Below, piece after piece: positions 2,896 to 48,300 of a DNA stretch of 48,300 nt. The DNA is from a virus. The stretch is taken from IMG/VR virus record IMGVR_UViG_3300000839_000001; one strand, 5' to 3'. How positions within the stretch are numbered: position 1 is the first letter of the stretch; the number at the start of each line of letters is the position of its first letter. Made by a program: the position numbers and the translations under genes. Under the pieces are notes generated by a model that was not told the DNA's origin, made no database searches, and saw only the letters and a program-made list of their open reading frames with translations.

Positions 2896-4581
2896 ATGTT
2901 CGGTCAATCAATCACAAACTCTCTGGCGGGTCTCGGCCCATTAGATAACAACGCTATGCAGAACACTACGGACGCAACTGTAGTGAAGAAAACAGAGCAG
3001 ACCTTTTTCCATACAGGCACTTATCTTACAAAGGATAAGTTAGTATGTCCTACACCGGGACTAGGTAAAGGTGGTTTATTATTGGTAGCAAAAGGGGATG
3101 CAGATATAGTAGCTGGAGAGGTTGTAAAATTCTTTGAGAATCGTCTAAAAGCTACGGGAAACCTCTTTTGGTTGTACTCAAGTGGAATATATGAAGCAGT
3201 TAAAAGCGAGCAACTTTGTTCTAGTTTGAAAGACTTTGTAGCTAGGAATGTTCTGTTAGATCAGTGTATCTTACGGAACGGAATGTTGGCAGAAAAACCT
3301 GATAACAGAAATCCTACTTCGCTAGTCAATAAAGACTTTATGCAGCAAATGCTACATGCTTCGCTCATTACAGAACAACAAGAGCGTAATAGATGGATTA
3401 GTGACGAGCCGAAACCTATAGAGTATCAACATGTGTTACCATGTCCCGACGGTCTGTACAATTACATGACGGGGGTATTATATCAAAATGATACAAGGAT
3501 GTTCTATAGGACACAATTGCCTATAACGCCGGACGGACGTGACCCATATCAGGAAGGTTCTCTATACAATAAGTTTATAGAGGAAATCCTGCCTGACCCA
3601 GCGCAAAGAGACTTGTTGCATGAATACATAGGAATCCTTATCGCTGGCGATACTCACTGGCAAAAGTTCCTTATGAAATACGGTGTAGCACAAGCGGGCA
3701 AGGGAGTGATCGACCACTTAATCACCTATCTGGTAGGAGAGAAAAACATAGCGTCAAAAGATGCTAACGACTTCAAAGGAGACTATGCTTTTGAAGGACT
3801 AGAGCGGGCTAGTGTGTGTTTTATGCACGAATTTACCGCGACTGCCGGAAATTTCCGGGGGTTTGTAGATAAGATAAAGAAGGTAGTAGGGGAAGACCCT
3901 GTAAGCGTCAATGCTAAATATATGCCTATTGTACAGATGAAGCTACCATGTAGGTTTGTAGTATCGACCAATAACATGCCTTTTTCAACGGAAATGTCCG
4001 ATGCCTTGAACAGGCGTATGTTGCCATTGCTTTTCACGGTAGAGATACCAGAGGAAAGACGGGATACATCACTGAAAGCAAGACTTACCGGCCCTAATGA
4101 GATTCAGGTATTGCTTTCACATTGTATACAAGGGCTTAAAAGGTTAAATGCAAATGGTAAATTCACCGAACCGCTTTCGACTACCGAGCTGCGTATCAAT
4201 ATCGATACGCAGCTAAACAATATAAAGGCCTTTGCTAGAGACTGCTTGCGACAAGGACAGGCTCAATTTGCTATACCTTGTGCGGTAGTGCATGATGCGT
4301 ATGTCGAGTATTGCCTTGACCAAGACAAAGGACAGATTAAGATAGCTAACTTGTTTGGTAAGGACTTGCGGGACGTATTCCCTAACTTGGTGGCGACTCA
4401 AAGAAGGGTAGGCGGGAAGAATATAAAGGTCTATGAGACTTTATCATTCGTTCCTTTGTATGTAGACTTGCAAAAGCTACTGAACGAGTTTTTCAAAAAG
4501 AAGTTTGGGCGACTTTTAGAACCGGCAGAAATTCAGAAACTTATGGGACTTACTAATACAGAATATGTAGAGGTGGACTAA
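2896..4581 (+). CDS. SF3 (D5 / P4-primase C-terminal family) replicative helicase-NTPase
   Basis: Walker A-like YGVAQAGKGV, Walker B-like VCFMHEF, motif C VVSTNN. RBS gagaggtga. Lies immediately upstream of the prim-pol gene. Confidence 0.7.
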   Translation: MFGQSITNSLAGLGPLDNNAMQNTTDATVVKKTEQTFFHTGTYLTKDKLVCPTPGLGKGGLLLVAKGDADIVAGEVVKFFENRLKATGNLFWLYSSGIYEAVKSEQLCSSLKDFVARNVLLDQCILRNGMLAEKPDNRNPTSLVNKDFMQQMLHASLITEQQERNRWISDEPKPIEYQHVLPCPDGLYNYMTGVLYQNDTRMFYRTQLPITPDGRDPYQEGSLYNKFIEEILPDPAQRDLLHEYIGILIAGDTHWQKFLMKYGVAQAGKGVIDHLITYLVGEKNIASKDANDFKGDYAFEGLERASVCFMHEFTATAGNFRGFVDKIKKVVGEDPVSVNAKYMPIVQMKLPCRFVVSTNNMPFSTEMSDALNRRMLPLLFTVEIPEERRDTSLKARLTGPNEIQVLLSHCIQGLKRLNANGKFTEPLSTTELRINIDTQLNNIKAFARDCLRQGQAQFAIPCAVVHDAYVEYCLDQDKGQIKIANLFGKDLRDVFPNLVATQRRVGGKNIKVYETLSFVPLYVDLQKLLNEFFKKKFGRLLEPAEIQKLMGLTNTEYVEVD

Positions 4582-5648
4582 TGACCCCAAAAGACTACAT
4601 AGATAGGGGCTATTACCTTATTCCCATTAAGCCGGGAACAAAGGAACCTCTATATGATCCGCCCCACTTTACCAAAGGAGCGGCGGATGCTACGCAAGAC
4701 TTGAAGCTGCTAGAGAAATATGAACACTTCGGACTGGTTTGTAACAATTGCACAGTCCTTGACTTCGACCTCTATAAAGGCATAGATGCTGGTATGCAAC
4801 AACTGTTGCAACAGTGCCTAGTCACCGATAGAGAGCGGCATAATGTGACAGTACAGAAAACCCCTAGCGGGGGATTACATATTATATATGCTAAGAATGA
4901 AGGGCTTAGGTTGAACATACCTAACCTTGATATACGCAATAGCAATCAGTATATATGCGTCGATCCGACTCCCGGATATGCTTGGTTCACCCATTGTAGG
5001 GATGGTATTGTCAATCAGAACTTTCCACCAGTCAATATGCTTACTACGTTTATGAGCAATGCTCTAGTAAACAATGAAGTACGTAGGACTGGTTATGATG
5101 TTCCCACAATCAAACCTACTCCCTCACAATGGGAAGGTATAATGCGATGGTTGCAAGGACAAAAGCCCGCTATAAGTGGGAATGGCGGACATAACCAAAC
5201 TTATAGAGTCGCCAGTGATTTGCGGGTTGGTTTCAATCTCGATACAGAGACGGTACACTGGCTACTATTGAACGTATATAATGAGAAGTGCCAGCCCATG
5301 TGGACGGAGAACGAGCTATGGCACAAGGCGAATAGCATTGTCGTATGGACAAAGCCGGGCTATCTGTTGGCTACTCTCGAAGCAAGACAAGAGATACAAT
5401 TACCCTATCGCATAGAGCGGGCGGGAAAGTATCTTTATGAATGTACCGATCCGAAGCATCTTCGGCGAGTGATAACTAAAATGCGGATAGGCTTCGACCT
5501 TCCCGCCGTGGCGGTTCTTAAACTGCTAGAAGTGTATAAACCAAACCTTCTACTTACTACTGAGTTGAAGGACTATGTATACAATCCAGATAACTTACAT
5601 AACCTTCCCGTAGGCTATATGCTTAGGGAGAAAGAAAGGCAACAATAA
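4581..5648 (+). CDS. archaeo-eukaryotic-type primase-polymerase (prim-pol)
   Basis: N-terminal YLIPIKPGTKEP. AEP motif I VLDFDLY (DxD), motif II PSGGLHIIY, motif III NLDIRNSNQYICVDP. ATGA overlap with the helicase gene. Confidence 0.7.
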   Translation: MTPKDYIDRGYYLIPIKPGTKEPLYDPPHFTKGAADATQDLKLLEKYEHFGLVCNNCTVLDFDLYKGIDAGMQQLLQQCLVTDRERHNVTVQKTPSGGLHIIYAKNEGLRLNIPNLDIRNSNQYICVDPTPGYAWFTHCRDGIVNQNFPPVNMLTTFMSNALVNNEVRRTGYDVPTIKPTPSQWEGIMRWLQGQKPAISGNGGHNQTYRVASDLRVGFNLDTETVHWLLLNVYNEKCQPMWTENELWHKANSIVVWTKPGYLLATLEARQEIQLPYRIERAGKYLYECTDPKHLRRVITKMRIGFDLPAVAVLKLLEVYKPNLLLTTELKDYVYNPDNLHNLPVGYMLREKERQQ

Positions 5649-5649
5649 C

Positions 5650-6893: not shown

Positions 6894-9191
6894 ATGGCTA
6901 TATATTGGTGGACGCCTTCAGTAGTTTTCCCACAAGGTAGTTTTCTTGCTCTCGATACAGAGACGACCGTTGTTGACTTGACGCGAGAAGTGCCAGCGAT
7001 GGTAGTAGGAGGTATATCTGATGGGCAGAACGTATATCTCTTGAAACCAGAAGACGTGATAAACTTTAGAGCTTACGCGGTAGCGTATAAGTACACATTA
7101 TTTATGCACAACGCCGCATTTGACTTGGCGGTTCTGGAGAAAGTCACGCAAGACGATCTACCCAAAGCTGCTAAAGAGGCAGGAACATCTTGGTATGATC
7201 TAGTAGATAGTAGTCAAGTAGTGGATACAATGCTGTTGTTCCAACTGTTGGAGATTGCTACGAAAGGCAAACATATCCAGAGTAGTTTGAAGTATGTTGT
7301 AGAAACCGTATTCGGTAAACAGGTCGAAAAACTAGCCCTTGATAAAGACGGTGATGTGATCCGAATGTCTTTTAGCAAATGGATAGGGCGTTTGGAGCAG
7401 ATGACCCAAGACTACGTAGACTACGTAGCGGACGATATTCTGTTGACCTATCAAGTAGGTATGCACCTATTGACTACCATTGCCGGTTTTGTGCAAGAGA
7501 GGGGTAGGAAACAAGATACGTTCGGCAATCTCACCATGTCCGAAATAACAGACGCATGGGGCAAATACGGCCCCCTAACGCATCATATTCAGCTAAAAGG
7601 AGCAATAGTCCTACATCAAATTACCTTGAATGGTATGTATGTAAACAGCGCCGCTGTAGAGCGCTTTATTGCTGAGGTACACAAAGAGGTTGAACAAATA
7701 GGGGCGAGACTTGCAACAGAATATGGATTTTTCAAAGGCCCCGGTTCCTCTGGAGTTTTGCAAGGTTTCTTTACACAGGTCGATCAAATAATAGTTGCCG
7801 AGCGTAGGAAACAAGGACTGCCTGTTACAGAGGTCTCGCAAGGAGTGTATACATTTCTACCTAGAACCGCCACCGGGAAATTTCAGACTGGGGCAGAAGT
7901 CATAGGTGAATATGAACTGCATAGCTACTCTGACTTTTTCGAGTTATACCTCAAGCACCAGACTTTAGAGAAGGAGTTAAATAGCTTTCTCAAGAAGTTA
8001 TACGGCGGCTATGGTATGTTCGGCAAACAGGACATAACGGTGCATCCATCGTTTACACCGATACTTAGCACCGGGCGAGTAAGTAGCTGGGGTGAGATCA
8101 ATTCTCAGAACATACCGAAGGTTAAAGGGATGCGAGAGTGTTTCGTAGCTAGAGAGGGTCACTGCTTTATCAATGTTGACTACTCCGGCATCGAAATGGT
8201 CACTCTGTGTGATGCGGTACGTAACCAGTTCCATGTAGATAGTCATGTCATGCAGGAAGCCATCAATAGTGGTAGAGACCTGCATAAAGAGACTGCGGCG
8301 TTCCTTGTAGGACATGATGACGTTACCAAAGAAGAACGGCAGAAAGCAAAGGCTGCAAACTTCGGACTCCCCGGCGGGATGGGAGGCAGGAGGCTCGCTA
8401 CCTACATGAGAGGGTATGGTGTTCGGATTACCGAGGAAGAGGGGCAAGCTATTGCGGATGGATGGAAGACTAAGTATCCAGAGATGCGGTACTTCATCAA
8501 TGAACTAGAGCCGCCAGCACAGGCTATTTTAGCACAGGCGGTATATAGTGAGACTGGTTGGTGTGCTTACAATGAAGCCCCTACAACCGAAGAAGGCTGG
8601 CGAATCTGTGGTTACATGACTGTAAAGCTGTGTACAGAACAAACCCCAGTTTCTAGTAGTGGCAACCCCTACGATATAAACATGGTGATGGGCGGTAGGA
8701 CATGTGTACAGAGCTGGGCTATAAAGAACGGTATAGCTGATTTACTGCCTGCAGGGTTTCCTCGATATCCAATCAGTAAGTCGAATATGGAGACTTTACT
8801 AGGTAGGCTGGGTTGGAAGTATACAGCAACAGCAACCGGCAGATATAGACGCACCAGTCGATTCACTGAAAAGCGGAATACTATCTTTCAAGGACTGGCT
8901 GCGGACGGGATGAAGCTCGCTAGTTACCTGATATATAGAGCAGGTTACAAGATAGTGAACATCGTTCATGACGAAATTCTGGTAGAAGTGCCAGACAACC
9001 GAGAGAGCTATACCGAAGCCTATAATGAGATATGTAACTTCATGCGGCAAGGTATGCACGAAGTAGTGCGAAATACTAGGGTAGAGGTAGAAGGCGCTAT
9101 TACTCGCTGTTGGAGTAAAGATGCCAAGCTACTTATGGATGATGACTATAACTATTTGATATGGGAGTATAACAATGCGACAGTTAGTTAG
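6894..9191 (+). CDS. family A DNA polymerase with 3'-5' exonuclease domain
   Basis: Exo I LALDTETT, Exo II HNAAFDLAVL, Exo III YVADDILLTY. Pol motif A DYSGIEMVTL, motif B RQKAKAANFGLPGGMG, motif C IVHDEILVEV. RBS aaggag. Confidence 0.9.
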   Translation: MAIYWWTPSVVFPQGSFLALDTETTVVDLTREVPAMVVGGISDGQNVYLLKPEDVINFRAYAVAYKYTLFMHNAAFDLAVLEKVTQDDLPKAAKEAGTSWYDLVDSSQVVDTMLLFQLLEIATKGKHIQSSLKYVVETVFGKQVEKLALDKDGDVIRMSFSKWIGRLEQMTQDYVDYVADDILLTYQVGMHLLTTIAGFVQERGRKQDTFGNLTMSEITDAWGKYGPLTHHIQLKGAIVLHQITLNGMYVNSAAVERFIAEVHKEVEQIGARLATEYGFFKGPGSSGVLQGFFTQVDQIIVAERRKQGLPVTEVSQGVYTFLPRTATGKFQTGAEVIGEYELHSYSDFFELYLKHQTLEKELNSFLKKLYGGYGMFGKQDITVHPSFTPILSTGRVSSWGEINSQNIPKVKGMRECFVAREGHCFINVDYSGIEMVTLCDAVRNQFHVDSHVMQEAINSGRDLHKETAAFLVGHDDVTKEERQKAKAANFGLPGGMGGRRLATYMRGYGVRITEEEGQAIADGWKTKYPEMRYFINELEPPAQAILAQAVYSETGWCAYNEAPTTEEGWRICGYMTVKLCTEQTPVSSSGNPYDINMVMGGRTCVQSWAIKNGIADLLPAGFPRYPISKSNMETLLGRLGWKYTATATGRYRRTSRFTEKRNTIFQGLAADGMKLASYLIYRAGYKIVNIVHDEILVEVPDNRESYTEAYNEICNFMRQGMHEVVRNTRVEVEGAITRCWSKDAKLLMDDDYNYLIWEYNNATVS

Positions 9192-11144: not shown

Positions 11145-12191
11145 ATGAGTAACGATACAGAGAAGGTTGTGCTAACTAGCAAAGGTTACCCTAAAGAATA
11201 CGTACCAGCAGTAGAGGAAGATATGTCACACATAGGACTACCGAACGTAATGCTCGCCCCAAACCAGCAAGCAGACTTGACGACTATAAAGTATCCGGCT
11301 TTTTGTTCATACAAAATGGACGGGATTCGAGCCATTTTCATCAATGGCGAGCTACGTAGTCGTAACATGAAATTTCACCCTGAGACTATACAGCAACACT
11401 TTCAGAACTTATGTGACTTTACCAGAGCCGCCAACTGTGTTTTGGATGGGGAGATATACCTGCACGGGTTGAAGTTCAATGAGATTAAAAGCACTATGCA
11501 CGATACATTGAAACTTGCTGCATGTCCTCTGGAGTTCCATTGTTTCGACATAGTAAGCACAGACGAGTGGCTTGGTGCTTCTGTAACCCCGTGGCATAAA
11601 CGCTACGCTACTCTGGAGTTATTCAGACAGGCATATACCTATGAGTTTGGTGACGACCGCTTTGTGCAGGTAGATCAGACATTACATAACAAGCCAGAGA
11701 CTATCCAAGACTTAATGGAGTTGTCTCTGGAAGAGGGGTTTGAGGGCATAATGATTAGAGACCCTTACTCGCTCTATAAGCATGGGCGAGCTACTATCAA
11801 GGAGAATACCTTCCATAAGTTGAAAGAGTTTGCTACCGTTCGGGCCGTCATAACTGGCTTCAATTATAAAGAAGTCTTGAAAGCAGATGCCCCAATGGGA
11901 GTAGATGCAATGGGATATACAGAGCGAGATCATCGCAAAGATAGCCGGGAAGTGATAGATGAAATTGGCTCTATCAACCTTGTCTTATCTGACAATACCT
12001 ACTTTCCAGTAGGTACGAAACTCTCTGCTACTTTTGCAAAGAACATGGAAGCCTACGCTCTGCGTTGTGCTATCACTACAAAGAACTTTAACTTCTATCT
12101 AGGGAAAGAAGTGTACGTCACCTTTCAACCCTGTGGCAGTGTAGATGCCCCTAGGTTTCCTAGAATTGTGAGACTGACCGGTGAAGTATGA
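11145..12191 (+). CDS. lig: ATP-dependent DNA ligase
   Basis: Motif I SYKMDGIRA (KxDG), motif III VLDGEIY, motif IV EGIMIRDP, motif V FHKLKEF. Confidence 0.85.
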   Translation: MSNDTEKVVLTSKGYPKEYVPAVEEDMSHIGLPNVMLAPNQQADLTTIKYPAFCSYKMDGIRAIFINGELRSRNMKFHPETIQQHFQNLCDFTRAANCVLDGEIYLHGLKFNEIKSTMHDTLKLAACPLEFHCFDIVSTDEWLGASVTPWHKRYATLELFRQAYTYEFGDDRFVQVDQTLHNKPETIQDLMELSLEEGFEGIMIRDPYSLYKHGRATIKENTFHKLKEFATVRAVITGFNYKEVLKADAPMGVDAMGYTERDHRKDSREVIDEIGSINLVLSDNTYFPVGTKLSATFAKNMEAYALRCAITTKNFNFYLGKEVYVTFQPCGSVDAPRFPRIVRLTGEV

Positions 12192-28648: not shown

Positions 28649-30010
28649 TTAGCCTTTAAGGGTATAGTCTATAGTTGACCAGTCACTTGAATGTTCTGCA
28701 CCTACTATAGCGTAGACCAGAGCATCTAGGTTGTTAGGAGAATCTGCTTTCGACTCTCCTGTAAAGCTCGTCATCTGTTTCTCTAATTCAGGGAATATAA
28801 ACGTATGATGAACTTTGTTCTGTGCGTATAGGTAGCTAATAGGTTCTGCTCTCAAATACTTACCACGTTTGGCGTGTACTGTGTAAATATGAGGGCAGGA
28901 TATACCTCTTTCATTAGCTGCGTGACGGATAGTATCTATGATAGTTTGTCCGCCTTGGTTTGTCTCTGCAATAATAGCGTCCGCTCTATAGTGCTCATAT
29001 AGCTGCATCGCTCGGTTCGCCCACTGTGAAGGTAGTCCGTGCATCGAGGAGTCATTTAGTATGAAGAAATGATATTCTCCATCTATCAAGGTTTTTCCCG
29101 CTACAATGATGCCAGTTTTATCACTACTTTCATTCGCTGTAACTGCCGGATCGATAGCAACCACTACTCTCTCAAGGGTAGGCATCATATCCGGGTGTAT
29201 TCGGTTTGCGTCAATAACATGCTGAGGCCATAGGGCATACTCTGCATTGTCTTGGAACTCACCTAGCAAGAATCGTTCTCTTGCTTTACCTACGTATCCA
29301 CTAAGTCGCGTCTTATACGCACTAGACAAGTTCTCCCAGTTATCATCTGGGTTCATTTGTATAGTGCCATATAGCTGTGGAAATCCTTCAATTGCTACCT
29401 GTAGCGTATGGTGTTTACCTTCAAAGAAGGTATCATATAGCCAGTGTGCCTTTGAAGGCGGGTTACAGTCTAGTATTACTTTGTTTACTAACTCTGTCCC
29501 ATACTTTACATGCTGACATTTCAAACTAGCTCGCGTATTCACTAGGTCAAATGCCTCGAAAGGTATAAGACTCGCTTCATTGAAATATATATGACCAAAC
29601 TCGGCCCCGAGGATTTTATCCAATCGCTCTTTATCCTCTACACCAGACATTGAGACTACTGAGCCTGTAGGATACGAAATAGTCAACTCTGTAACATTAG
29701 TTGTATATACTTTTTCGTGAAACTTCCTACCGCGGAGAGACTTTACTAATTCCCATCCCTCCATACGCAACATCTTCTTATACGTTTCGTTGAAAATACG
29801 TGCCCTCACATCGCTCTGTGTACTTCTCAGAATCGCCAGTGGGACGCCGTTACCTTCCATATCTACATACTGATAGCACTGCCAATGGAGCCATCTGCAT
29901 ATATTGATGGTCTTCCCTGAACGTGATCCTCCATAGTGGAGTTGGTTTGTTATAACAGGATCATTCAGTAATTTTAATTGTTCTAACTGTTTCGCCGTTG
30001 CTTTGAACAT
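28649..30010 (-). CDS. terLr: terminase large subunit
   Basis: Walker A YGGSRSGKT, Walker B-like HIYFNEAS, nuclease-domain VVAIDPAVTANESSDKTGIIVAG. Confidence 0.85.
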   Translation of the reverse strand: MFKATAKQLEQLKLLNDPVITNQLHYGGSRSGKTINICRWLHWQCYQYVDMEGNGVPLAILRSTQSDVRARIFNETYKKMLRMEGWELVKSLRGRKFHEKVYTTNVTELTISYPTGSVVSMSGVEDKERLDKILGAEFGHIYFNEASLIPFEAFDLVNTRASLKCQHVKYGTELVNKVILDCNPPSKAHWLYDTFFEGKHHTLQVAIEGFPQLYGTIQMNPDDNWENLSSAYKTRLSGYVGKARERFLLGEFQDNAEYALWPQHVIDANRIHPDMMPTLERVVVAIDPAVTANESSDKTGIIVAGKTLIDGEYHFFILNDSSMHGLPSQWANRAMQLYEHYRADAIIAETNQGGQTIIDTIRHAANERGISCPHIYTVHAKRGKYLRAEPISYLYAQNKVHHTFIFPELEKQMTSFTGESKADSPNNLDALVYAIVGAEHSSDWSTIDYTLKG

Positions 30011-39024: not shown

Positions 39025-39048
39025 ATACTCGCCTATGTCTATAAGTAG

Positions 39049-39104
39049 TTCAGCAAAGCTGCTGATACTGGATGAAGCTCGGAGTACCTAGTTTCATCTA
39101 ATCA
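39049..39104 (-). promoter_or_regulatory. conserved hairpin element, copy B
   Basis: cagcaaagctgctgatactggatgaagctcggagtacctagtttcatctaat. Stem atgaagc/gtttcat around loop tcggagtaccta. Ends about 25 nt upstream of the 39024 start. Confidence 0.6.
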
Positions 39105-39783
39105 GAGAGTGAGGGCAGGTAGGTCATCACTCTACCTACCCTCGTCGGTGCTTCAGTCCGACTAGCTACCTTACCGGATACTGCTGGTTATTAGGCAGTA
39201 GGCAGCTTCCCGCTTCGCAATATATCTTATACGTCCGAACGATAGGGTTTGTCCCGAAAAATCCCGGAAATTCTATGGTTTTGTGGATACGGCGGGCGGT
39301 TCCTTATATACGCTACACGGAATTGATTATTGTGGTGGATTTCAACTACCTACAAGGTGACAAGGACAATATCGGAGAGTCGGCTAAAATCGATTTTAAG
39401 AGGGTGTACGCTTTCAATGAAGCGAGATTGATCGACACATGGTGTTTGTGGTCATGTGGTCTATTGAAACTTGTACAATTTCAATACGGATTGCTTCCAT
39501 AAATTTGAATTTTGTTTTTGAAAATCAAAAGCTAGGGAGGTGTAGAGGGATATGGAGAATTGAATATCGTAGGAAGGTTAATGGAGTTACATAATTGGAA
39601 AGGTTGGAGAGGCTAATGAAGTTACGTAATTGAAGAGGTTTGAAAGGTTTAGAAGTGCCACGGCCTGAGATAACGTCGCTATGAGCACAGCTGCTATGGA
39701 GATCATAATCGCTATTTTATTTTTATAAAATTGAGGGAAGCATTTAGAACCGCCACCGTGACTATGTTTGATCGCTATGGACA

Positions 39784-39860
39784 TAAGAGTGTAACCATGA
39801 AGACTGCTGGAAGCCTAATAGTAGCCGCTGCTACGGAGTAAGAGTGTAACCATGAAGACT
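39784..39860. repeat. pair of perfect 22-nt direct repeats taagagtgtaaccatgaagact (39784..39805 and 39839..39860)
   Basis: Read directly. Each contains GTGTAACC. Confidence 0.9.
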
Positions 39861-39951
39861 TGCTGGAGAATTTGGGCTTGACGTGAACAGATAGGCGAGC
39901 TGCCCCGATCCTCCCATACTCCCTATCGTTTTTGAAGGTCTCCCCGTTCCC

Positions 39952-40030
39952 ACGAACAGAGCGGCCAAAGCAGGCAGGGCGATTGCTGGGCGGCTAGGGC
40001 GAAACGAACAGAGCGGCCAAAGCAGGCAGG
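39952..40030. repeat. pair of perfect 27-nt direct repeats acgaacagagcggccaaagcaggcagg (39952..39978 and 40004..40030)
   Basis: Read directly. Start-to-start spacing is 52 nt. Confidence 0.9.
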
Positions 40031-40091
40031 CGGTGTAGCGATTGATCGACCTCGCAAAGCAAGTATAGTTAGATTGGCGAATAGGGAGTAA

Positions 40092-40167
40092 GACCGTAAC
40101 CGCGCAACCACGTAACCATAAAATTAGGGATCGGCAATTGTGGTTACGCGGTTGCGTGGTTATGGTC
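40092..40167. repeat. imperfect 29-nt inverted repeat. Each arm holds three 8-nt-spaced G(T/C)AACC units.
   Basis: gaccgtaaccgcgcaaccacgtaaccata versus the reverse complement of tgtggttacgcggttgcgtggttatggtc. 25 of 29 match, with an 18-nt spacer. Confidence 0.8.
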
Positions 40168-40398
40168 GGTCGATTTGTGGGAATCGACTGAAAATTGGGT
40201 GTAACCGGGGCGGTTACGGCAGTGCCAGCCCCCGGTTGACGTAGTTACACCCTTAAAAATAGGAATATCTATTGATATGTAACGAGTAACTATTCTAAAG
40301 TAAAAGATCGTCTAACAAAATGCCTTTCCGGGGGGGAAAAAGAGGGGGGGAGACCTCGCTGGTTACACTGAAATGATCGTTACGAGCCGCCCGTAACC

Positions 40399-40439
40399 AT
40401 TATATATATATCCACGGGCCGCGTAACCGGCCCGTGGAT
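40399..40439. promoter_or_regulatory. (TA)6 tract abutting an 11-bp perfect GC-rich hairpin whose loop carries GTAACC
   Basis: attatatatatat, then atccacgggcc-gcgtaacc-ggcccgtggat. Confidence 0.7.
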
Positions 40440-40499
40440 ACGAAAGTAATCAAACAGGTTTCATAACCATATAACCGGAGCCGCCTCCCGGCAACTTGT

Positions 40500-40523
40500 G
40501 GTTACACGGTTACACGGTTACAC
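40500..40523. repeat. tandem iterons GGTTACAC x3
   Basis: ggttacacggttacacggttacac read directly. Confidence 0.9.
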
Positions 40524-40576
40524 GTAGATAGCCCATTCTGTGTAACGGAAAAGTTGTATCTATCAAACATTTCTAT

Positions 40577-40609
40577 GGGGGTGGGGGTGGGGGTGGGGTG
40601 GGGTGGTGG
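40577..40609 (+). other. G-quadruplex-forming tract: five G4-5 runs separated by single T
   Basis: gggggtgggggtgggggtggggtggggtggtgg read directly. Confidence 0.8.
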
Positions 40610-40630
40610 TTCTTTCGCTGCGTCTCCAAA

Positions 40631-40824
40631 CGCCGTAAGTCTTTATAGCGGAAGGGTTTATAGCGAAACTTCCGCAGTGAATCTACGTATTCGAGCGTGG
40701 CGATTCTCAAAAAACTAAGTGTCCATCCGGGAATTTCTCCCTATTTTTCTCGGAAATTTTCCAGCATCGGGGAAATTTCTAGCAGCACTTTTATCGCCAT
40801 AAGTCCTTTATAGGTAAAGGTTTA
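40631..40824. repeat. two imperfect 30-nt direct repeats (40631..40660 and 40795..40824), each followed by TGGCG(A/G)TTCTC
   Basis: cgccgtaagtctttatagcggaagggttta versus cgccataagtcctttataggtaaaggttta. Confidence 0.7.
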
Positions 40825-40978
40825 CGGCGGTTGGCGGTTCTCGACACGAAAAATTTCCTAGAAAATTCCCCCACTTTCGGGGGGTTTTATAGGATTTCCT
40901 CTAGCCCGCGGCGGTTCTAGTCGATATAATACAGTAGACGCGGGAAAGAAAGCCAGCCCGCAAAAACCACCATATCTA

Positions 40979-41011
40979 ACAGAAACAGGAACAGAAACAG
41001 GAACAGAAATC
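40979..41011 (+). repeat. 12-nt tandem repeat acagaaacagga x2.75, ending at the start codon of 41012
   Basis: Read directly. Confidence 0.85.
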
Positions 41012-41332
41012 ATGCAAAAGCACGAAACCTACAGAGAAATTGAAGCCTGTAAACGAAGCTACCTAGCCACTATCGTTCAGGGATTCCTAGAAGCCGCAGA
41101 GACCAAATATAGCTGTGAAACTAAGCTCTCTACAGAGGACTGTATAGTCCTCATTTCGGCCCCTAACGGCACGAATCTGCGAATCACTTCTATCACCCCT
41201 TACGAATACGATTCCGTCATCGTGCGAATCGAAGAAGAAGGAGTGAGAGGATACCGAGAACATCACATATATGATGTGGTATCTTGCCATGAAGTCCTCG
41301 ATAGCTACCTCGATGCCGACCTCGATATTTAG
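41012..41332 (+). CDS. hypothetical early protein, first gene of the plus arm
   Basis: 106-aa ORF preceded by a 12-nt tandem repeat containing aggaa. Confidence 0.6.
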   Translation: MQKHETYREIEACKRSYLATIVQGFLEAAETKYSCETKLSTEDCIVLISAPNGTNLRITSITPYEYDSVIVRIEEEGVRGYREHHIYDVVSCHEVLDSYLDADLDI

Positions 41333-41412
41333 CCCAAAAATTTACGAGTGGCGGCTCTACCCGCCGTCACCTCGAATACTACATCACTACATCACTAATA
41401 AGGATACATATT

Positions 41413-41793
41413 ATGCCGATAGCCAAAACTAACCGAATCGTCCAACAACTCGAAGCCCTTAAACCTTACCTCTCTACTGCCTATTATGAAGGCAAAGTAC
41501 GAATTGACGTTACCGCTACGATAATCGAAGGCCGTCATCTGCGTGTCTCGGTAGAAGGAACAGGCAGAGTGTCTCGATACTATCGAGTATCTCTTTGTCA
41601 TCACAGCTTTAGTCTTACCTACGAAACAGTCCCTGCTTGGGAGATCGTGTTCGAGGACACAATGGGTACACCTATTGGGCTGCCTATCTATTTACCACGC
41701 GAGGCGCATACTCCAGAATTTGATTCTTGGAACATTAAAACTACTCTCTATCTCGCAAATAACCCCATTAGTAGTAAAGAGGACTGCGAATAA
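41413..41793 (+). CDS. hypothetical early protein
   Basis: 126-aa ORF. RBS taaggat. Confidence 0.6.
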   Translation: MPIAKTNRIVQQLEALKPYLSTAYYEGKVRIDVTATIIEGRHLRVSVEGTGRVSRYYRVSLCHHSFSLTYETVPAWEIVFEDTMGTPIGLPIYLPREAHTPEFDSWNIKTTLYLANNPISSKEDCE

Positions 41794-42167
41794 TGACACA
41801 AAAATCAAACAAACCCAAAGTGTCCCCGCATACTAGAAGGCTTCATAGGGCCTTCAGCAGAGCGGCACAAGCCCTATACCTAGCTCTACCCGACTACTAC
41901 CCGATTAGCAGCATACGTATCGAGGCTGTAACCAGCAGCCTAACCGGCGAGGTCGAGTTACTCCCGGTGGCGCGTCTGAAAAATGATACAGAGTATCATC
42001 TGCGAGCTACCGAGAACGGACTATGCTCTTTGATAGAGAGTGTCCCACAGCCCAGCCCTATGATTACCGATACAGTAACCCGTTCGGCGAAGCAACAGTC
42101 ACTAGCTAGTATTAGCAAAGACTTCCTAGCTCAAATGATACTGGCCAACGCAAGAGAACGCAAGTGA
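41793..42167 (+). CDS. hypothetical early protein
   Basis: 124-aa ORF with an ATGA-type overlap with the upstream gene. Confidence 0.6.
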   Translation: MTQKSNKPKVSPHTRRLHRAFSRAAQALYLALPDYYPISSIRIEAVTSSLTGEVELLPVARLKNDTEYHLRATENGLCSLIESVPQPSPMITDTVTRSAKQQSLASISKDFLAQMILANARERK

Positions 42168-42186
42168 CTATGTGGCCAACACTTGC

Positions 42187-42319
42187 GGCAGGGCAGTCTA
42201 ACGGTTGCCCTGCCGACTTCCGGCGGTTGCCGGATTATTCCGAGATTTTTCTCGGAATCGGCGGAACTACTTCCCGCCCCAGACGTATCATATATATATA
42301 CAGTCGCGATTGTCGCGAC
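42187..42319 (+). promoter_or_regulatory. highly structured intergenic segment: three perfect hairpins and a (TA)6 tract
   Basis: ggcagggca/tgccctgcc (42187..42214), attccgaga-tttt-tctcggaat (42237..42258), TA tract 42290..42301, gtcgcga-ttg-tcgcgac (42303..42319). Confidence 0.6.
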
Positions 42320-42366
42320 ACTAACCCCGCCGAGGTAACCCCGGCAAAAAAGAAAGAGAAAATATC

Positions 42367-42978
42367 ATGTCCGAAGCTACCACAGCCGCCGCCTCCTCCT
42401 CCGAAAAATCCGGCAAGTCAAAAAAACGATACCTCGATGCTATTCTGACGGCAGAAAAAGGTACGGCCACAGTTGCCGGAATCGCCCTGCCTGCCGGAAT
42501 GATCGGCACTCGCCCTACCAGAGACGGCGAGCCTGCCAAGCCTGCACTGGCTATTGTCCCGCCGATTCTCGGTATCCCCGAAACACACGTAGCGGGATAC
42601 GACTGTACACCGATCATGTGGAGTACTGGGTATCACAACCCTGCGAAAGCCGATTTCATAAATGATAGCGTCTATTACGCGTTCGTCATGGCTATCAAGG
42701 CCCGCGAGTACCAAGCCGCCGAAGAATCGAAGAAACTGGCCGATGCCCAGCCCGACCTCTTTATCCCGGCTTCTACGGGGCAGTCCGTTGCCGCGAAAGT
42801 CTCTGCCGCGACTGCTGTTGCGGAAAACCGGGTCATGGTCGAGACCGTCAAGTCCCTGTACCTTCAGGGATCGTTCGCGGCTATGGGCTTGACCCTGCCC
42901 AGCCAGATTTGGACTATGATTTACGCACAAGTGCCGTGTCCGGCTAATCTCGATACCGAGATCACGGGACAAGCCTAG
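42367..42978 (+). CDS. hypothetical early protein
   Basis: 203-aa ORF preceded by aaagaaagagaaaatatc. Preferred over the antisense ORF 42418..42972. Confidence 0.6.
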   Translation: MSEATTAAASSSEKSGKSKKRYLDAILTAEKGTATVAGIALPAGMIGTRPTRDGEPAKPALAIVPPILGIPETHVAGYDCTPIMWSTGYHNPAKADFINDSVYYAFVMAIKAREYQAAEESKKLADAQPDLFIPASTGQSVAAKVSAATAVAENRVMVETVKSLYLQGSFAAMGLTLPSQIWTMIYAQVPCPANLDTEITGQA

Positions 42979-43139
42979 TCTCCCTAAGCCCCTACGGCGT
43001 AGGGACTTACATCAAAATCAGTCCCGTTGGCGATTCTAACGGGACTACCTTTACAGTTTAGTGTACTACCGTCATAGTACACTGCTACATAGCATCATCA
43101 CCTAGCCAGTCACCATATCTATCACCGGAACTATCTATC

Positions 43140-43415
43140 ATGCCAAGCCCTAAGTTGTCGCAAGTCATTACCCCCGCAAAGGTTACGTATCGACCAATCG
43201 AAGCACAAGCGAGTGAACTAAACTACATCGCCTATCATAGGTCGATATTGCTGGATAGGCTCGCCCAGATTCAAGCCGAATTGGCGGCTCTTGACCGCCG
43301 CAGAGCCACTATAGACGCTGCTATTGTCGCTACCTATATGCCCCCTGTCGTTGACACACAGATCACTGGTACAGATGTACCAGCAGAGCCGGGCGACACG
43401 CAAGACACGCCGTAG
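43140..43415 (+). CDS. hypothetical early protein
   Basis: 91-aa ORF with a helical centre LLDRLAQIQAELAALDRRRATIDAAI. CACCATATCT motif 20 nt upstream. Confidence 0.55.
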   Translation: MPSPKLSQVITPAKVTYRPIEAQASELNYIAYHRSILLDRLAQIQAELAALDRRRATIDAAIVATYMPPVVDTQITGTDVPAEPGDTQDTP

Positions 43416-43512
43416 ACCTCTGTACGATATGTGTTGCGATATTCAGAGCGAAGCGTGTAGCCTACGGCTACTTGAGCGTTTGAATTTTGCTACATATTTC
43501 AGAACGTAGCGC

Positions 43513-43530
43513 GAAACCTGTACAGGTTTC
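43513..43530. promoter_or_regulatory. perfect 18-bp palindrome gaaacctgtacaggtttc (operator-like)
   Basis: Read directly. Lies in the intergenic region upstream of 43608. Confidence 0.6.
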
Positions 43531-43607
43531 AAAGCAAGGCGAAATTTATAACAGCCCCCATTACCTAGCTAACAATCCCACTTACACCATTTAGAGGAAC
43601 AATACCT

Positions 43608-44057
43608 ATGACTACTATCTTCAATCCGTCTGCCGCCCAAGTCGCAACACTTCCTATCCCTTTACAAGATAGAATTGTCTTCGGTAGCAAGCTACTAAAC
43701 ACGTTGCTAGTTAGCAATCTTGAGTTTGACTACCATGACGTGTATAGTGAGTTGACACAACAACACTATAGAACACCTATGGAATGCACACAATACGACT
43801 TTTTCCAACGTATCGAATCGCCGGACTGGCAAGTAGCCGTGTCATTCCAGTACAAAGACTATGATTTCCCTAGCAATCAAGGTAATCTCACTAACTGCTA
43901 TTGGGCGAGGTATCCAGTAGTATCCGTCATACGTAGAGTAGATGATAAACTCTATACTGTGCTGGAAATGACGATCACCTATGACGATGTTTTCGACGGC
44001 AACGATTGTACAATCGCTAGCAACACAGTTGCTATAGATACTGTTAGGAATACCTAA
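43608..44057 (+). CDS. hypothetical early protein
   Basis: 149-aa ORF. RBS agaggaac. Confidence 0.6.
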   Translation: MTTIFNPSAAQVATLPIPLQDRIVFGSKLLNTLLVSNLEFDYHDVYSELTQQHYRTPMECTQYDFFQRIESPDWQVAVSFQYKDYDFPSNQGNLTNCYWARYPVVSVIRRVDDKLYTVLEMTITYDDVFDGNDCTIASNTVAIDTVRNT

Positions 44058-44236
44058 CAGTATCTAAGGGAGTGCATTGACCTAACAATCAGAACCGCCA
44101 GTGTGATATGGGCGAATAGGCCATATCATGCTCTTGCTACTGTTGACGCTTTAGCGTCATCTTGAGTAGCATAGCTATTACCCTGTTTGGTAGTAGCACT
44201 TACACCATAACCGCCCAATAGGGCAAAGGAACACTA

Positions 44237-44629
44237 ATGGACATTCAATCAGTACCTGAACGCTTCAAAGTAGTTATCATCAAGCTACAAGGCATGTTGT
44301 CAAAGGTTGACGGCTTGCTACATGTAACCGCCGAAGTAGAACACGCCGAGACAATCGACTATGGCGGCGGATTGTATTACTATGAACACAAGGTAGATAG
44401 TGATATGTACTCGGTCAAGGTTGTCGCTCAATATAGTAGCAACAAAGACCGTGACAACGGATTGTCAGACATACATATCTCGATCCGTGACAACTTCGGC
44501 GAATTGGCGTTTCTTACGCTTTCCCCTTGTATTATGGATATTGCTACACGGACAAAGTGTTTGTTAGTCAGCAATATCATTCAGTCAATCCTCACCAATG
44601 TACCGAAAGCAGAGGTTATCAATGACTAA
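44237..44629 (+). CDS. hypothetical early protein
   Basis: 130-aa ORF. RBS aaaggaac. Confidence 0.6.
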   Translation: MDIQSVPERFKVVIIKLQGMLSKVDGLLHVTAEVEHAETIDYGGGLYYYEHKVDSDMYSVKVVAQYSSNKDRDNGLSDIHISIRDNFGELAFLTLSPCIMDIATRTKCLLVSNIIQSILTNVPKAEVIND

Positions 44630-44888
44630 AGAGCAACACCCTAAACTTATAGCATACGTTCAATCCCGTTCCGGTATCTTTGGTATGCGACTTGACGGCT
44701 ACGTATTTGAGAGCAGCGAGACTATGGCGGGTTATTTCATTGAAGTATTCACCGAAACCAAGCGTAGAGGACGGCCCGCTAAAGGCCAGCACATAGCTAC
44801 CGTTTGTTCTTCCTCACTAGCGGTTCATTTGTCGGACTACAGCGAGATAGTCGAAAGTCCGAATGGCTTGGCTATTGCTTTTGTTTAG
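44622..44888 (+). CDS. hypothetical early protein
   Basis: Start moved to the ATG at 44622 (MTKEQHPKL), which follows agaggttatca and overlaps the upstream stop by 8 nt. Confidence 0.5.
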   Translation: MTKEQHPKLIAYVQSRSGIFGMRLDGYVFESSETMAGYFIEVFTETKRRGRPAKGQHIATVCSSSLAVHLSDYSEIVESPNGLAIAFV

Positions 44889-45009: not shown

Positions 45010-47187
45010 ATGAGTACAACGGAACAATCTAAAGTGTCAGAACAAAGAGTATGCAATGTTACTATGAAGGGAGAGCAAATAGAATTTGCCTTCCCGTTCG
45101 GGTACAAAGAATTGTCTAACGGCAAAGTCCCCTTTAGAGCGTATGATATACATGATGACGCCTATTGGGGCTCGTTCCCGGAAAAGTATACCGATGAAGA
45201 AGGTAACTATGTCGGGAGACAAGCAGAGCGGGACGCCCCCTTCTCTCTCATTTGGAAACGCCCAAAGAGGATAGAGATTGTCAAGGCTTTCAATCTCTTG
45301 CTAGAGCATTGCAACCCCGCCACATACAACTACCGCTTTGAGAGCAATACACCCTATATAGCACAGATTATGGGGGATAACCTCGCTCTTGAGAACCGCC
45401 AGCGATTGGCGGTTCCGTATATCTATCAAGCCCTTCAATATCCTCTTATGGAGCATCAAATAGAGGAAGTTAGCAAGGCAGCGCTATGTACCGGCAGGTG
45501 TAACTTTTCGGCAACCGGAACCGGCAAGACGGTGATGATTATAGCTACTATGTTCAATAAGTGGTTATTAGAAGGCCGACCGGATAGGCCCTGCTTGATA
45601 GTCTGCCCCAACCACATACGACTTGCATGGAAGCGAGAGTTTGACACGTTCACTAACCACAATGTGAAGTGTACAATAGTCATGGGTACACCTGCCCAAA
45701 GGAAATATATACTATTCAATGCCCTAGGTCAACCATTGCAAGATGTACCAGTGGAGTACGCTACTACTGGCGAGACTGGCACGAAGCCTATGCGGGTTAT
45801 AATTGCCGGATACGATACCGTCACCAATGATATACTTGACTTTATGATAGGTGACTGGTTTGCCGGTTGTCTTGACGAAGCGCATAGGATAAAAACACCC
45901 CTGACCAATAGAACGGAAGCTATCTTTAATCTACAAAGAAGGATTAAGCATCGCTATGTAGCAACAGGTACGCCGGACACCAATAGCTTTGCGGACGCGT
46001 ACACGCCTATAGAATGGGTGTTCCCTAACTATTTCGGCAAAAGGTGGCATGAAGACATTACCGAACATAGCGAGACACGTAGCACTGCCAGAACAGAGAA
46101 AGAGCGGAAGAGAGATAAAGAAAAGGCGACATTACGTAATGCTCTCAACAAGTATCCCGGTCAACCTAGCGGACGGACGGACGGGATACCTATCAAACCC
46201 TATATCAATGATTCTGAAAACAATCTTGGAGTAAAATGGAGTAGCCTTAATGGTGGACAAGAGCGTCTTATTTCCGAGTTTGGGACTACGGATAGTTTTG
46301 GAAAAGCAAAGAAGCTATATAGACATAAAGAACAGGAGTTTCAAGACCTTATAAAGTATGCTAGTTGTAGGTATCTCTTGACTGATATACGGGACGATAT
46401 GCCCGATCAAATCATGGAAGTCGTACCTATCGACCTTACCGAAGAACAGAAAGTGGTATACAAAGCCTTACAAGAGAAACTTTTGTATGCTATGGAGTCT
46501 GCGGAAGGTATGAAGACCGTGACAATAACGAACATGCTTACTCAATACTTGCGACTGGTACAAGTTACAGGCGGTTGGGTACAGTATGATGAAGAAAGCG
46601 GTTGGGACTTTGAGAACGGCACACTCATAGAGAGCGTAACTACTAGGGAAGACTTTGTAGACAATCCCAAACTAGATAAGGCTATCGAACTATGTCAGGA
46701 AGCGATAGTAGATAACAAGTGCATCATCTGGGCACATTTCCGTCACGACATAGACTTGATTATGTCAAGGCTGGCGAGTCTTGGTATAAAACACGCTAGG
46801 ATTGACGGGAGAGATACAGATAAGAATCGCCAAGAAGTCATACACGCTTTCAACAATGATTCTACAATGCGTGTACTGGTAGCTAACCCCGGAGCATGTG
46901 GGGAAGGGTTAAACCTACAAGGTGTTCAAGGTACGGAAGCTAAAGACTATGATGACGCTGTTCTATGTAACACGCTCATATTCTATAGTACCTCTTGGAG
47001 TAGTAAGGACTTTATTCAGGCAATGGCCAGACCATACCGATTGAATACTACATGCACACAATACATATACTCGCTACAAGCGAGAGCGTCGATTGACAAC
47101 TACATATACAGTGTTGTGCAAGGCAAATGTGACGCAAGCAGAGAGCTGTTAGGTGACGTTCTCAAACAATCTGTGGGGACTACCTAG
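45010..47187 (+). CDS. SNF2/Rad54-family (SF2) helicase-ATPase
   Basis: Motif I SATGTGKTVM, motif II LDEAHRIK, motif III ATGTPDTNS. C-terminal lobe GEGLNLQ and QAMARPYR. Confidence 0.85.
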   Translation: MSTTEQSKVSEQRVCNVTMKGEQIEFAFPFGYKELSNGKVPFRAYDIHDDAYWGSFPEKYTDEEGNYVGRQAERDAPFSLIWKRPKRIEIVKAFNLLLEHCNPATYNYRFESNTPYIAQIMGDNLALENRQRLAVPYIYQALQYPLMEHQIEEVSKAALCTGRCNFSATGTGKTVMIIATMFNKWLLEGRPDRPCLIVCPNHIRLAWKREFDTFTNHNVKCTIVMGTPAQRKYILFNALGQPLQDVPVEYATTGETGTKPMRVIIAGYDTVTNDILDFMIGDWFAGCLDEAHRIKTPLTNRTEAIFNLQRRIKHRYVATGTPDTNSFADAYTPIEWVFPNYFGKRWHEDITEHSETRSTARTEKERKRDKEKATLRNALNKYPGQPSGRTDGIPIKPYINDSENNLGVKWSSLNGGQERLISEFGTTDSFGKAKKLYRHKEQEFQDLIKYASCRYLLTDIRDDMPDQIMEVVPIDLTEEQKVVYKALQEKLLYAMESAEGMKTVTITNMLTQYLRLVQVTGGWVQYDEESGWDFENGTLIESVTTREDFVDNPKLDKAIELCQEAIVDNKCIIWAHFRHDIDLIMSRLASLGIKHARIDGRDTDKNRQEVIHAFNNDSTMRVLVANPGACGEGLNLQGVQGTEAKDYDDAVLCNTLIFYSTSWSSKDFIQAMARPYRLNTTCTQYIYSLQARASIDNYIYSVVQGKCDASRELLGDVLKQSVGTT

Positions 47188-48113: not shown

Positions 48114-48300
48114 ATGTCCGATGCTTTGAACGCTTTCCTCTCACAACACGCTGCTACGCAGCCCGATGCTACCCAACAATACGTTCCCCCTGTTGCGGCC
48201 CCTGTTGCGGCCCCTGTTGCGGCCCCTGTTGCGGCCCCTGTTGCGGCCCCTGTTGCGGCCCCGATCCCTGCGGCCCCGATCCCTGCGGCCCCTGTTGCGG
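48114..48300 (+). CDS. 5' part of a gene that runs off the window end and resumes at 1..873. N-terminus MSDALNAFLSQHAATQPDATQQYVPP, then PVAA/PIPAA repeats
   Basis: ATG at 48114 lies 6 nt after aggagatacc. The frame is open to base 48300. The last 28 nt equal the first 28 nt and join in frame with the ORF ending at 873. Confidence 0.75.
   Translation, partial: MSDALNAFLSQHAATQPDATQQYVPPVAAPVAAPVAAPVAAPVAAPVAAPIPAAPIPAAPVA
48189..48300 (+). repeat. in-frame tandem coding repeats: six 12-nt units cctgttgcggcc (PVAA), two 15-nt units ccgatccctgcggcc (PIPAA), then a partial unit
   Basis: Read directly. The array continues at 1..84 as three alternating 15/12-nt pairs. Confidence 0.9.

Follow-up and report, generated by a model that had tools for sequence, protein, structure and literature searches.

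What is the function of the long gene-free junction that separates the two operons of the phage genome of IMG/VR record IMGVR_UViG_3300000839_000001, and of the short repeats that crowd it? The stretch analysed here, hereafter the window, covers the entire phage genome, a circle of 48.3 kb (48,300 nucleotides (nt), 45.7% G+C) derived from contig k141_96548 of ENA ERZ27245261 (48,368 bp). Its structural operon, with the genes for TerL (28649-30010), the portal and the major head protein, occupies the minus strand from 39024 down to 13539. Genes on the plus strand begin at 41012 and continue past the point where the circle closes as far as 13585; among them Pfam identified two helicases, one of the SNF2 type (45010-47187) and one of the SF3 type (2896-4581), together with a prim-pol (4581-5648), a PolA (6894-9191) and a ligase (11145-12191). 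The 2-kb junction that divides the leftward structural operon from the rightward early genes (39025-41011) has a doubtful frame of 75 amino acids (aa) as its sole open reading frame; the genes flanking it have no Pfam or PHROG match, blastn against INPHARED returned no match for the gap, and no Rfam match or tRNA was found anywhere in the window. The phage looks lytic. A preliminary description, made from the letters of the DNA, had noticed in this junction a repeated octamer, GGTTACAC or, on the other strand, GTGTAACC. Judging from sequence comparison, we consider it probable that the array of these units (39585-40547) is an iteron replication origin, served by the phage's own PriRep5/D5-type helicase with the prim-pol as primase.

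A phased octamer array in the junction

The preliminary description had placed exact GTGTAACC at 39789, 39844 and 40199, and exact GGTTACAC at 40361, 40500, 40508 and 40516, the last three head to tail; a direct count of the sequence returned all seven positions, with the triplet in exact 8-nt phase. Its suspicion that the word is confined to this region was also borne out. On both strands of the whole window the octamer occurs nine times, against 1.69 +/- 1.23 (maximum 5) in shuffled sequences (n=100, dinucleotide-preserving), and seven of these nine copies lie within 735 nt (39789-40523), the remaining two, at 25447 and 31706, falling within coding sequence. The clustering extends to shorter and looser forms of the word: 13 of the 41 copies of the hexamer GGTTAC fall in the gap, and 16 of the 35 copies of the degenerate unit SGTTACRN lie in 39500-40600, a 36-fold excess in density over elsewhere. 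An unbiased scan of all 6- and 7-mers gave GGTTAC and GTGTAAC as the most clustered of the genome, and in the corresponding scan of 8-mers GGTTACAC ranks just below words that stem from a tandem repeat in the coding sequence at the two ends of the window. With the degenerate copies included, the array comprises about 22 units of consensus (G/C)GTTAC(A/G)N, core GTTAC, in four or five clusters (Table 1); the outlying units at 39585 and 39620 go beyond the span first described and lengthen it to about 960 nt. Many short repeats (5-8 nt) clustered in non-coding DNA, as found in origins of the SF3 helicase-initiator type, are thus present.

The arrangement of the units is equally distinctive. The inverted repeat at 40092-40167, already described as built of degenerate triple units, is real: its arms of 30 nt are 87% complementary, with 16 nt between them and three 8-nt-phased units per arm, and folded as single-stranded DNA the block reaches -27.1 kcal/mol (z = -7.4). 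We regard it as a candidate assembly site for two helicase hexamers. The AT tract noted beside the repeats (40245-40310) contains the sixth least stable 40-mer of the genome (-42.8 kcal/mol versus a mean of -54.1, sd 3.8, or about 3 sd), and it is flanked on both sides by units in both orientations, again as in iteron origins of SF3 helicase-initiators. The near-matches AGTTACAC at 40243 and GTGTAACG at 40540 were recovered, as was the hexamer GTAACC at 40393 and again at 40423, where it falls within the loop of a hairpin (40409-40440) whose arms are 100% complementary (-16.5 kcal/mol, z = -6.3). The geometry is therefore origin-like, with triplets in exact 8-nt phase, units in both orientations, a 3+3 palindrome and an AT tract inside the array. 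An iteron origin of the plasmid or lambda type was considered and rejected: the units are 8 nt long and contiguous, not 17-22 bp and spaced about two helical turns, and the window proteins scanned yielded no Rep_3, RepA or O-like domain.

A PriRep5-like helicase as the putative initiator

The SF3 helicase and prim-pol genes that had been located at 2896-5648 were confirmed by Pfam, the stop codon of the first (4581) overlapping the start of the second. The helicase, of 561 aa, matches DUF5906 and D5_N and, weakly, the RFX winged helix (residues 456-508). In sequence it aligns with the SaPI5 protein PriRep5 (PDB 7OLA; E 4e-10, residues 178-497 against 434-748), and a Foldseek search put the same protein first (7OLA_C, E 2.8e-19), followed by African swine fever virus PrimPol, mpox E5 and vaccinia D5. 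The AlphaFold model obtained from a 66-sequence alignment (pLDDT 90.1, pTM 0.85) has as its last elements three helices (442-450, 462-475, 484-494) and then a beta-hairpin (499-514), and we read this predicted domain (about residues 442-515, nt ~4219-4440) as a winged helix, that is, a helix-turn-helix (HTH) plus wing. The family is very large, with 19,277 representatives. A defect suspected in the Walker A motif (GKGV) was dismissed, this being an ordinary family variant present in 17 of the 66 sequences.

What is known of the related proteins concerns this same domain. The SaPI Reps read iterons of 5-6 nt through a C-terminal winged helix, their origins consist of six to twelve iterons around an AT-rich centre with opposite orientation on the two sides, and PriRep5 deprived of its C-terminal domain loses origin binding (PMC9371898). 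Similarly, Cch2's isolated C-terminal domain binds three 5-nt iterons within a 23-bp repeat (PMC7581432).

Two homologues of the window helicase carry arrays of the same design beside their genes. The prim-pol-D5 helicase of contig L034 shares 25% identity with that of the window, in an alignment that runs through the winged helix, and the array that follows its gene contains GGTTACACGGTTACAC (that is, GGTTACAC twice), two copies of CCGTTACAC and inverted GTAACC units around an AT tract of 80 nt. Of the 18 copies of TGTCAC in contig L130, 12 crowd the 270 nt that follow the stop codon of its homologue (P0003, 27% identity); this array of TGTCACGG comprises a triplet in 8-nt phase, an AT tract and pairs of inverted 8-nt units. 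Both contigs thus join a helicase of the same family to 8-nt-phased triplets, inverted sets and a central AT tract, as in the window; the octamer of L034 (GGTTACAC/CGTTACAC) is identical to that of the window, and the core in L130 is one base off (GTCAC against GTTAC). In contrast to the window, where about 960 nt of array lie 10.7 kb away from the helicase gene, these arrays are compact (270-450 nt) and start between about 10 nt (L130) and a few hundred nt (L034) after the helicase stop codon.

The octamer beside helicase genes of other phages

A search of IMG/VR with the tandem GGTTACACGGTTACAC returned at least 119 contigs in at least 20 sequence families (loci L001-L119). Among the matches listed, the tandem is part of a larger array of the same word in 12-14 families, and the only protein families that recur in a Pfam census of its neighbours are Terminase_2 and the helicase domains described here. 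At least eight unrelated phage families have, 40-460 nt away from the tandem, the 3' end of a gene for a self-loading helicase: these helicases are of the DUF927+HTH_56 (Cch-like) type in F1, F4 and L075, of the VapE/DUF5906 type in F3, L008 and L116, and D5-like in L034, and the neighbour in F6, an 839-aa protein without Pfam match, was counted as a helicase from its size and position only. Two composition-matched tandem octamers, used as controls in IMG/VR, gave 8 and 27 contigs, 4-15 times fewer than the at least 119 above, with 1-3 array-like families each; no adjacent helicase was seen in the 8-contig set, the only control set tested for this. Neither blastp clustering nor the Pfam census brought out, among the matches listed, a small DNA-binding protein shared across families beside the GGTTACAC arrays.

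We take the helicase to be the likely binder of the units because of its homology to PriRep5, its winged helix, the arrays of its two homologues and the occurrence of the octamer beside helicases in at least eight families. The preliminary description had left two choices standing, origin or centromere-like site and helicase or prim-pol as the binder. The PriRep5 homology, the winged helix and the homologues' arrays favour the origin and the helicase; the centromere loses ground with no partition genes detected in the proteins scanned, and so does the prim-pol, for which nothing points to binding of double-stranded DNA.

How far the word itself is shared is a separate matter. No similarity was detectable between the C-terminal domains of the three helicase families beyond the generic wing motif [KR][IV]xG[KG]xx[RK], the alignment of the gap with the array regions of the other phages is limited to the triplet itself, and a literature search for the octamer gave primers and unrelated matches only. 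The phages that bear it appear to infect different phyla, F1 being related to Ruminococcus gnavus phages and L008 having Bacteroides-type domains. It is conceivable, although we rate it as unlikely, that GTTAC-core octamers form a widely shared origin word for at least three helicase families (D5/DUF5906, VapE and DUF927/Cch) in different host phyla, either through convergence of winged helices on one DNA shape or sequence or through an unrecognised common factor, and that in the window the origin has moved from the initiator gene into the early/late switch region. Were this so, the initiation of replication and the control of transcription could be coupled there; a shared octamer, if real, would also bear on how winged-helix initiators choose their sites, and could help to predict phage origins in metagenomes.

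One group of octamer-bearing phages, which encode PolA (loci L095, L064, L022 and L107, from families F2 and F5 and from singletons), has an array GGTTACAC GGTTACAC c GGTTACGG with an AT tract about 200 nt upstream of a Terminase_2-like gene (~200 aa), and not behind a helicase gene. Some 100 nt beyond it comes a conserved motif similar to CCGTGGGCCG, reminiscent of the hairpin arms at 40409-40440 in the window.

A model for initiation and its precedents

We propose that the C-terminal winged helix of the SF3 helicase would bind the units, and that the contiguous triplets phased at 8 bp, together with the inverted sets, would bring in several subunits, so that two hexamers could assemble in opposite orientations. 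The duplex would then melt at the AT tract, and possibly also at the 24-nt spacer of the 40092-40167 palindrome or at the (TA)6 run; the helicase would load itself, the prim-pol would prime and PolA would extend. The outlying clusters at 39784-39860 and 40361-40547 may serve as auxiliary sites of high occupancy, comparable to crr of phage P4. What the analysis shows is the array with its statistics and geometry, the fold of the helicase and the comparative association; binding, melting and initiation at the array are inferred from the comparison with related systems.

Several of these systems offer partial precedents. The alpha protein of phage P4 is an SF3 helicase whose C-terminal winged helix binds octamer iterons, TGTTCACC, in two clusters (ori and crr) that do not directly follow the gene. 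The likeness lies in octamer iterons set in separate clusters away from the gene; alpha differs in fusing primase and helicase in one protein, and its iterons differ in sequence and arrangement. In the origins of SV40 (large T antigen) and of the papillomaviruses (E1), inverted short repeats, an AT tract and a palindrome direct the assembly of a double hexamer, although there the DNA is bound by an N-terminal origin-binding domain and not, as proposed for the window helicase, by a C-terminal winged helix.

The closest parallel is with the SaPIs, which have a homologous helicase with C-terminal winged helix (7OLA), a primase partner of the prim-pol type, and origins made of short repeats, 6-12 or more, in opposed orientation on either side of an AT-rich stretch (PMC9371898). 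The differences are also clear: the SaPI origin lies directly downstream of the helicase gene, and that of the window phage would be 10.7 kb off; the SaPI units are 5-6-mers, whereas those of the window are 8-nt-phased octamers with a GTTAC core, about 22 of them over some 960 nt in four or five clusters; and in the window primase and helicase are separate proteins of a complete lytic-type phage, not of a satellite. In SCCmec, the three head-to-tail AAGTG iterons of the 23-bp direct repeat bound by the C-terminal domain of the D5-like helicase Cch2 resemble the 24-bp triplet at 40500-40523 (PMC7581432). Cch2 has only these three, directly downstream of its gene, and the many sets, the inverted arrangements and the palindromic 3+3 block set the window apart from it. 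The array is thus a fairly ordinary kind of element, previously undescribed for this phage, and it differs from the known kind by its detachment from the initiator gene, its size and its composite layout. If the proposal is correct, it supplies a defined origin and an initiator-origin pair for a phage lineage with almost no annotated relatives; it would also mean that a PriRep5/D5-type helicase may serve an origin far from its own gene, which bears on tools that seek origins only beside rep genes.

Alternative readings: operators, partition, packaging or host factors

A number of observations weigh against an origin at this site: (i) the array lies about 10.7 kb from the helicase gene round the circle, and not directly downstream of it, which is the arrangement in SaPI, SCCmec, L034, L130 and the DUF927/VapE phages. 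(ii) It lies between divergent operons, where arrays of operators are also expected. (iii) The AT tract is not unique, five windows of the genome being less stable. (iv) The recognition helix (FG[RK]xL+) is kept in members of the helicase family that have different iterons. (v) The cumulative GC skew has its minimum at ~45.4 kb, and 39.0 kb is a local minimum only. (vi) The octamer is absent from all fetched stretches of relatives of the phage (L129, L131, L132 and L134-L136), none of which covers an equivalent array. (vii) The equivalent divergent gap of one relative, L132, contains four copies of an unrelated 23-nt repeat.

The second of these points introduces another reading, that the units are operators bound by a transcription regulator of the phage, be it a small early protein of the ribbon-helix-helix or HTH type or the HTH protein from 1656-2159, which would act on the divergent early and late operons. 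Contiguous 7-8-bp direct and inverted repeats are typical of ribbon-helix-helix operators such as the met boxes of MetJ and the omega heptads, and the geometry of the array matches them; its place within a 2-kb junction of divergent operons would be suitable, and the different repeat set of L132 in the same gap is what fast-evolving operators would produce. Candidate regulators are also available, the window encoding one weak HTH protein and many small early proteins without annotation (ten); no ribbon-helix-helix repressor was identified among the window proteins, these ten carrying no annotation. We nevertheless hold this reading to be possible rather than likely, for an oriented alignment of the units revealed no promoter element at a fixed distance from them, sigma-70-like sites are about as many as expected (4 found, 2.8 expected), a separate GGAAATTTC-type module at 40725-40900, conserved in L129, looks like the real promoter/operator, and elsewhere the octamer array accompanies initiator helicase genes, with no shared small DNA-binding family among the matches listed. 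A promoter for an ECF sigma factor was rejected as well: GTGTAACC contains TGTAAC, which resembles a -35 box, but the units are contiguous, occur in both orientations and show no element at a constant spacing.

Clustered phased repeats also mark centromeres of the parC/parH type and some pac sites, and would fit a partition site, or a pac/cos packaging site recognised by the small terminase. For packaging, the F2 and L022 phages, with their GGTTACAC array about 200 nt upstream of a Terminase_2-like gene, argue in the same direction. In the window, TerL and the gene preceding it lie about 9 kb from the array, and, the assembly being circular with its cut inside a coding repeat, nothing marks genome ends at the array. 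Partition is not expected of a phage that looks lytic, and Pfam found no ParA, ParB, ParM or integrase among the 30 predicted proteins scanned; nor did Pfam or PHROGs give a ParA, ParB, ParM or ParR domain in the proteins scanned, many small ones being without annotation. A partition or packaging site therefore seems improbable to us.

The last alternative is that the protein bound by the units would come from the host, be it DnaA, a nucleoid protein or some other, and not from the phage. The occurrence of one octamer beside helicases of three families without detectable C-terminal similarity would be explained by such a factor, and the hairpin arms at 40409-40440 (TATCCACGG) weakly resemble a DnaA box. 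DnaA boxes (TTATCCACA, at most one mismatch) are not enriched, with 13 found versus 12.3 expected and only one in the gap, so that DnaA boxes beside the iterons, a feature of plasmid and lambda-type origins, were discarded; and the octamer-bearing phages appear to infect different phyla, which makes a single shared host factor unlikely. We give this explanation very little credence, and retain the iteron origin served by the phage helicase as the preferred one.

Relatives of the phage

True relatives of the window phage are rare. IMG/VR searches with the 315-aa neighbour protein and with SNF2 found no relatives, and a metagenome scan with an SNF2 alignment gave a single contig, which reaches just 1.8 kb upstream. 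Contigs L129 and L132-L138 were found through homologues of the helicase and of a 446-aa protein; none of them has the octamer or spans an equivalent array. L129 is syntenic with the window, has a helicase 47% identical to that of the window, and ends 0.8 kb upstream of SNF2. The relative from SRR27955148, to which contig L134 belongs, has a helicase of 47% identity with a near-identical recognition helix. L134, which comes from the same sample as L129, has a divergent gap of 640 nt without the octamer, and at the contig end GTTAC occurs five times on one strand within 150 nt, with an 8-nt pair among these copies; this cluster and the near-identical recognition helix may be a hint of conservation in the lineage.

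The relatives have repeats of their own. A CGAAC-containing repeat, AGCGAACACTCGTTAG, occurs four times in L132 (compare the 27-nt repeats ACGAACAGAGCGGCCAAAGCAGGCAGG of the window), and a run of four GAACGAAC lies in L134 inside a called small gene (638-859), outside the gap. L132 also has a second large non-coding block, without counterpart in the window: 2.6 kb of its early region (4177-6756) contain no called gene, and hold six to seven copies of ATCAACCA, five of TTTGAAAA and several hairpins.

Features of the array and neighbouring sequences

The features that make up the array are listed from left to right in Table 1, followed by the two genes of the proposed initiator and its partner.

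Table 1. Components of the iteron array and the genes proposed to act on it, in coordinates of the window
Feature	Position	Strand	Remarks
Two outlying degenerate units, AGTTACATAATTG and AGTTACGTAATTG (AGTTACAT at 39585, AGTTACGT at 39620; AGTTACRTAATTG type)	39585..39627	+	35 nt apart; left edge of the array
22-nt direct repeat in two exact copies, TAAGAGTGTAACCATGAAGACT, 55 nt apart	39784..39860 (starts 39784, 39839)	-	One GTGTAACC each, equal to GGTTACAC on the minus strand
GC-rich 27-nt direct repeat in two exact copies, ACGAACAGAGCGGCCAAAGCAGGCAGG, 52 nt apart	39952-39978, 40004-40030		Within the array region, without the GTTAC core
Palindromic iteron block	40092..40167	both	Minus strand: CCGTAACC GCGCAACC ACGTAACC; plus strand: GGTTACGC GGTTGCGT GGTTATGG; 24-nt spacer ATAAAATTAGGGATCGGCAATTGT
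Inverted pair GTGTAACC-N5-GGTTACGG	40199..40219	both	Fold z -3.0
Degenerate unit AGTTACAC	40243..40250	+	Left edge of the AT-rich tract
AT-rich tract (~73% A+T), candidate DNA-unwinding element	40245..40310		Iterons on either side
One exact GGTTACAC, then inverted pair CGTTACGA / CCGTAACC	40361..40398	both	From sequence and fold
(TA)6 run, then perfect 13-bp GC-rich hairpin, arms TATCCACGGGCCG	40397..40440		GTAACC in the 6-nt loop
Degenerate 8-nt-phased pair CATAACCA TATAACCG	40462..40477	-	Weak; read off the sequence directly
Head-to-tail triplet of GGTTACAC, 24 bp, exact 8-nt phase	40500..40523	+	Exact matches
Inverted near-match GTGTAACG, facing the triplet	40540..40547	-	From the SGTTACRN-type unit scan
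SF3 (D5 / PriRep5-type) helicase, proposed initiator	2896..4581	+	Pfam DUF5906, D5_N, weak RFX; 7OLA by sequence and fold
Prim-pol primase, proposed priming partner on the opened origin	4581..5648	+	Pfam PF09250, E 1.5e-9

Just right of the iteron triplet, the plus strand has a canonical G-quadruplex-forming run, GGGGGTGGGGGTGGGGGTGGGGTGGGGTGGTGG (40578-40610), and on the right of the AT tract there is another pair of G-runs, GGGGGGGAAAAAGAGGGGGGG (40330-40352); the gap is strongly G-skewed because of these runs. GC skew as a locator of the origin gave no decision between its global minimum at 45.4 kb and the local one at 39.0 kb, and was set aside. The early plus-strand genes at 41012-44888 have a negative skew, opposite to that of all other plus-strand genes, and for this reason the cumulative minimum falls at ~45.4 kb rather than at the strand-switch point.

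The module at 40725-40900 belongs to a second repeat family, found once more at the left edge of the gap (39248-39272), whose members are GGGAATTTCTCCC, CGGAAATTTTCC, GGGGAAATTTCTAG and GAAAAATTTCCTAGAAAATTCCCC, with TTTATAG and CGGCGGTTC alongside. A very similar module, TCTCGAAAATTTTGGCGAAAAATTCCAGATTTTGGGGAAAATTCCG, is present in another intergenic region of L129 (3310-3380), and the family is probably a lineage-specific promoter/operator module, separate from the iterons. The 167-aa protein encoded at 1656-2159 has a weak Pfam match to HTH_20 only, and its C-terminal segment, LTEEEHVLLSLYLKDGMSSEDIARHL...TVYRRLDRMRMKIK, resembles sigma-70 region 4 by eye; with no sigma match in PDB or Pfam, it could be a phage sigma-like or other HTH regulator.

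The ends of the window (48190-48300 and 1-100) are a cut inside an in-frame coding tandem repeat with units CCCCTGTTGCGGCC / CCCGATCCCTGCGGC, and relatives have other tandem repeats, CAACAGCA, at about the same position (L131 4730-5210, L129 3894-4230). Finally, gene-free stretches upstream of the 406- and 435-aa genes, at 4997-5883 in L136 and 3430-3700 in L129, contain sequences that resemble tRNA genes by eye, for example GGCACTTAGCTCAGATGGTTAGAGCATC.

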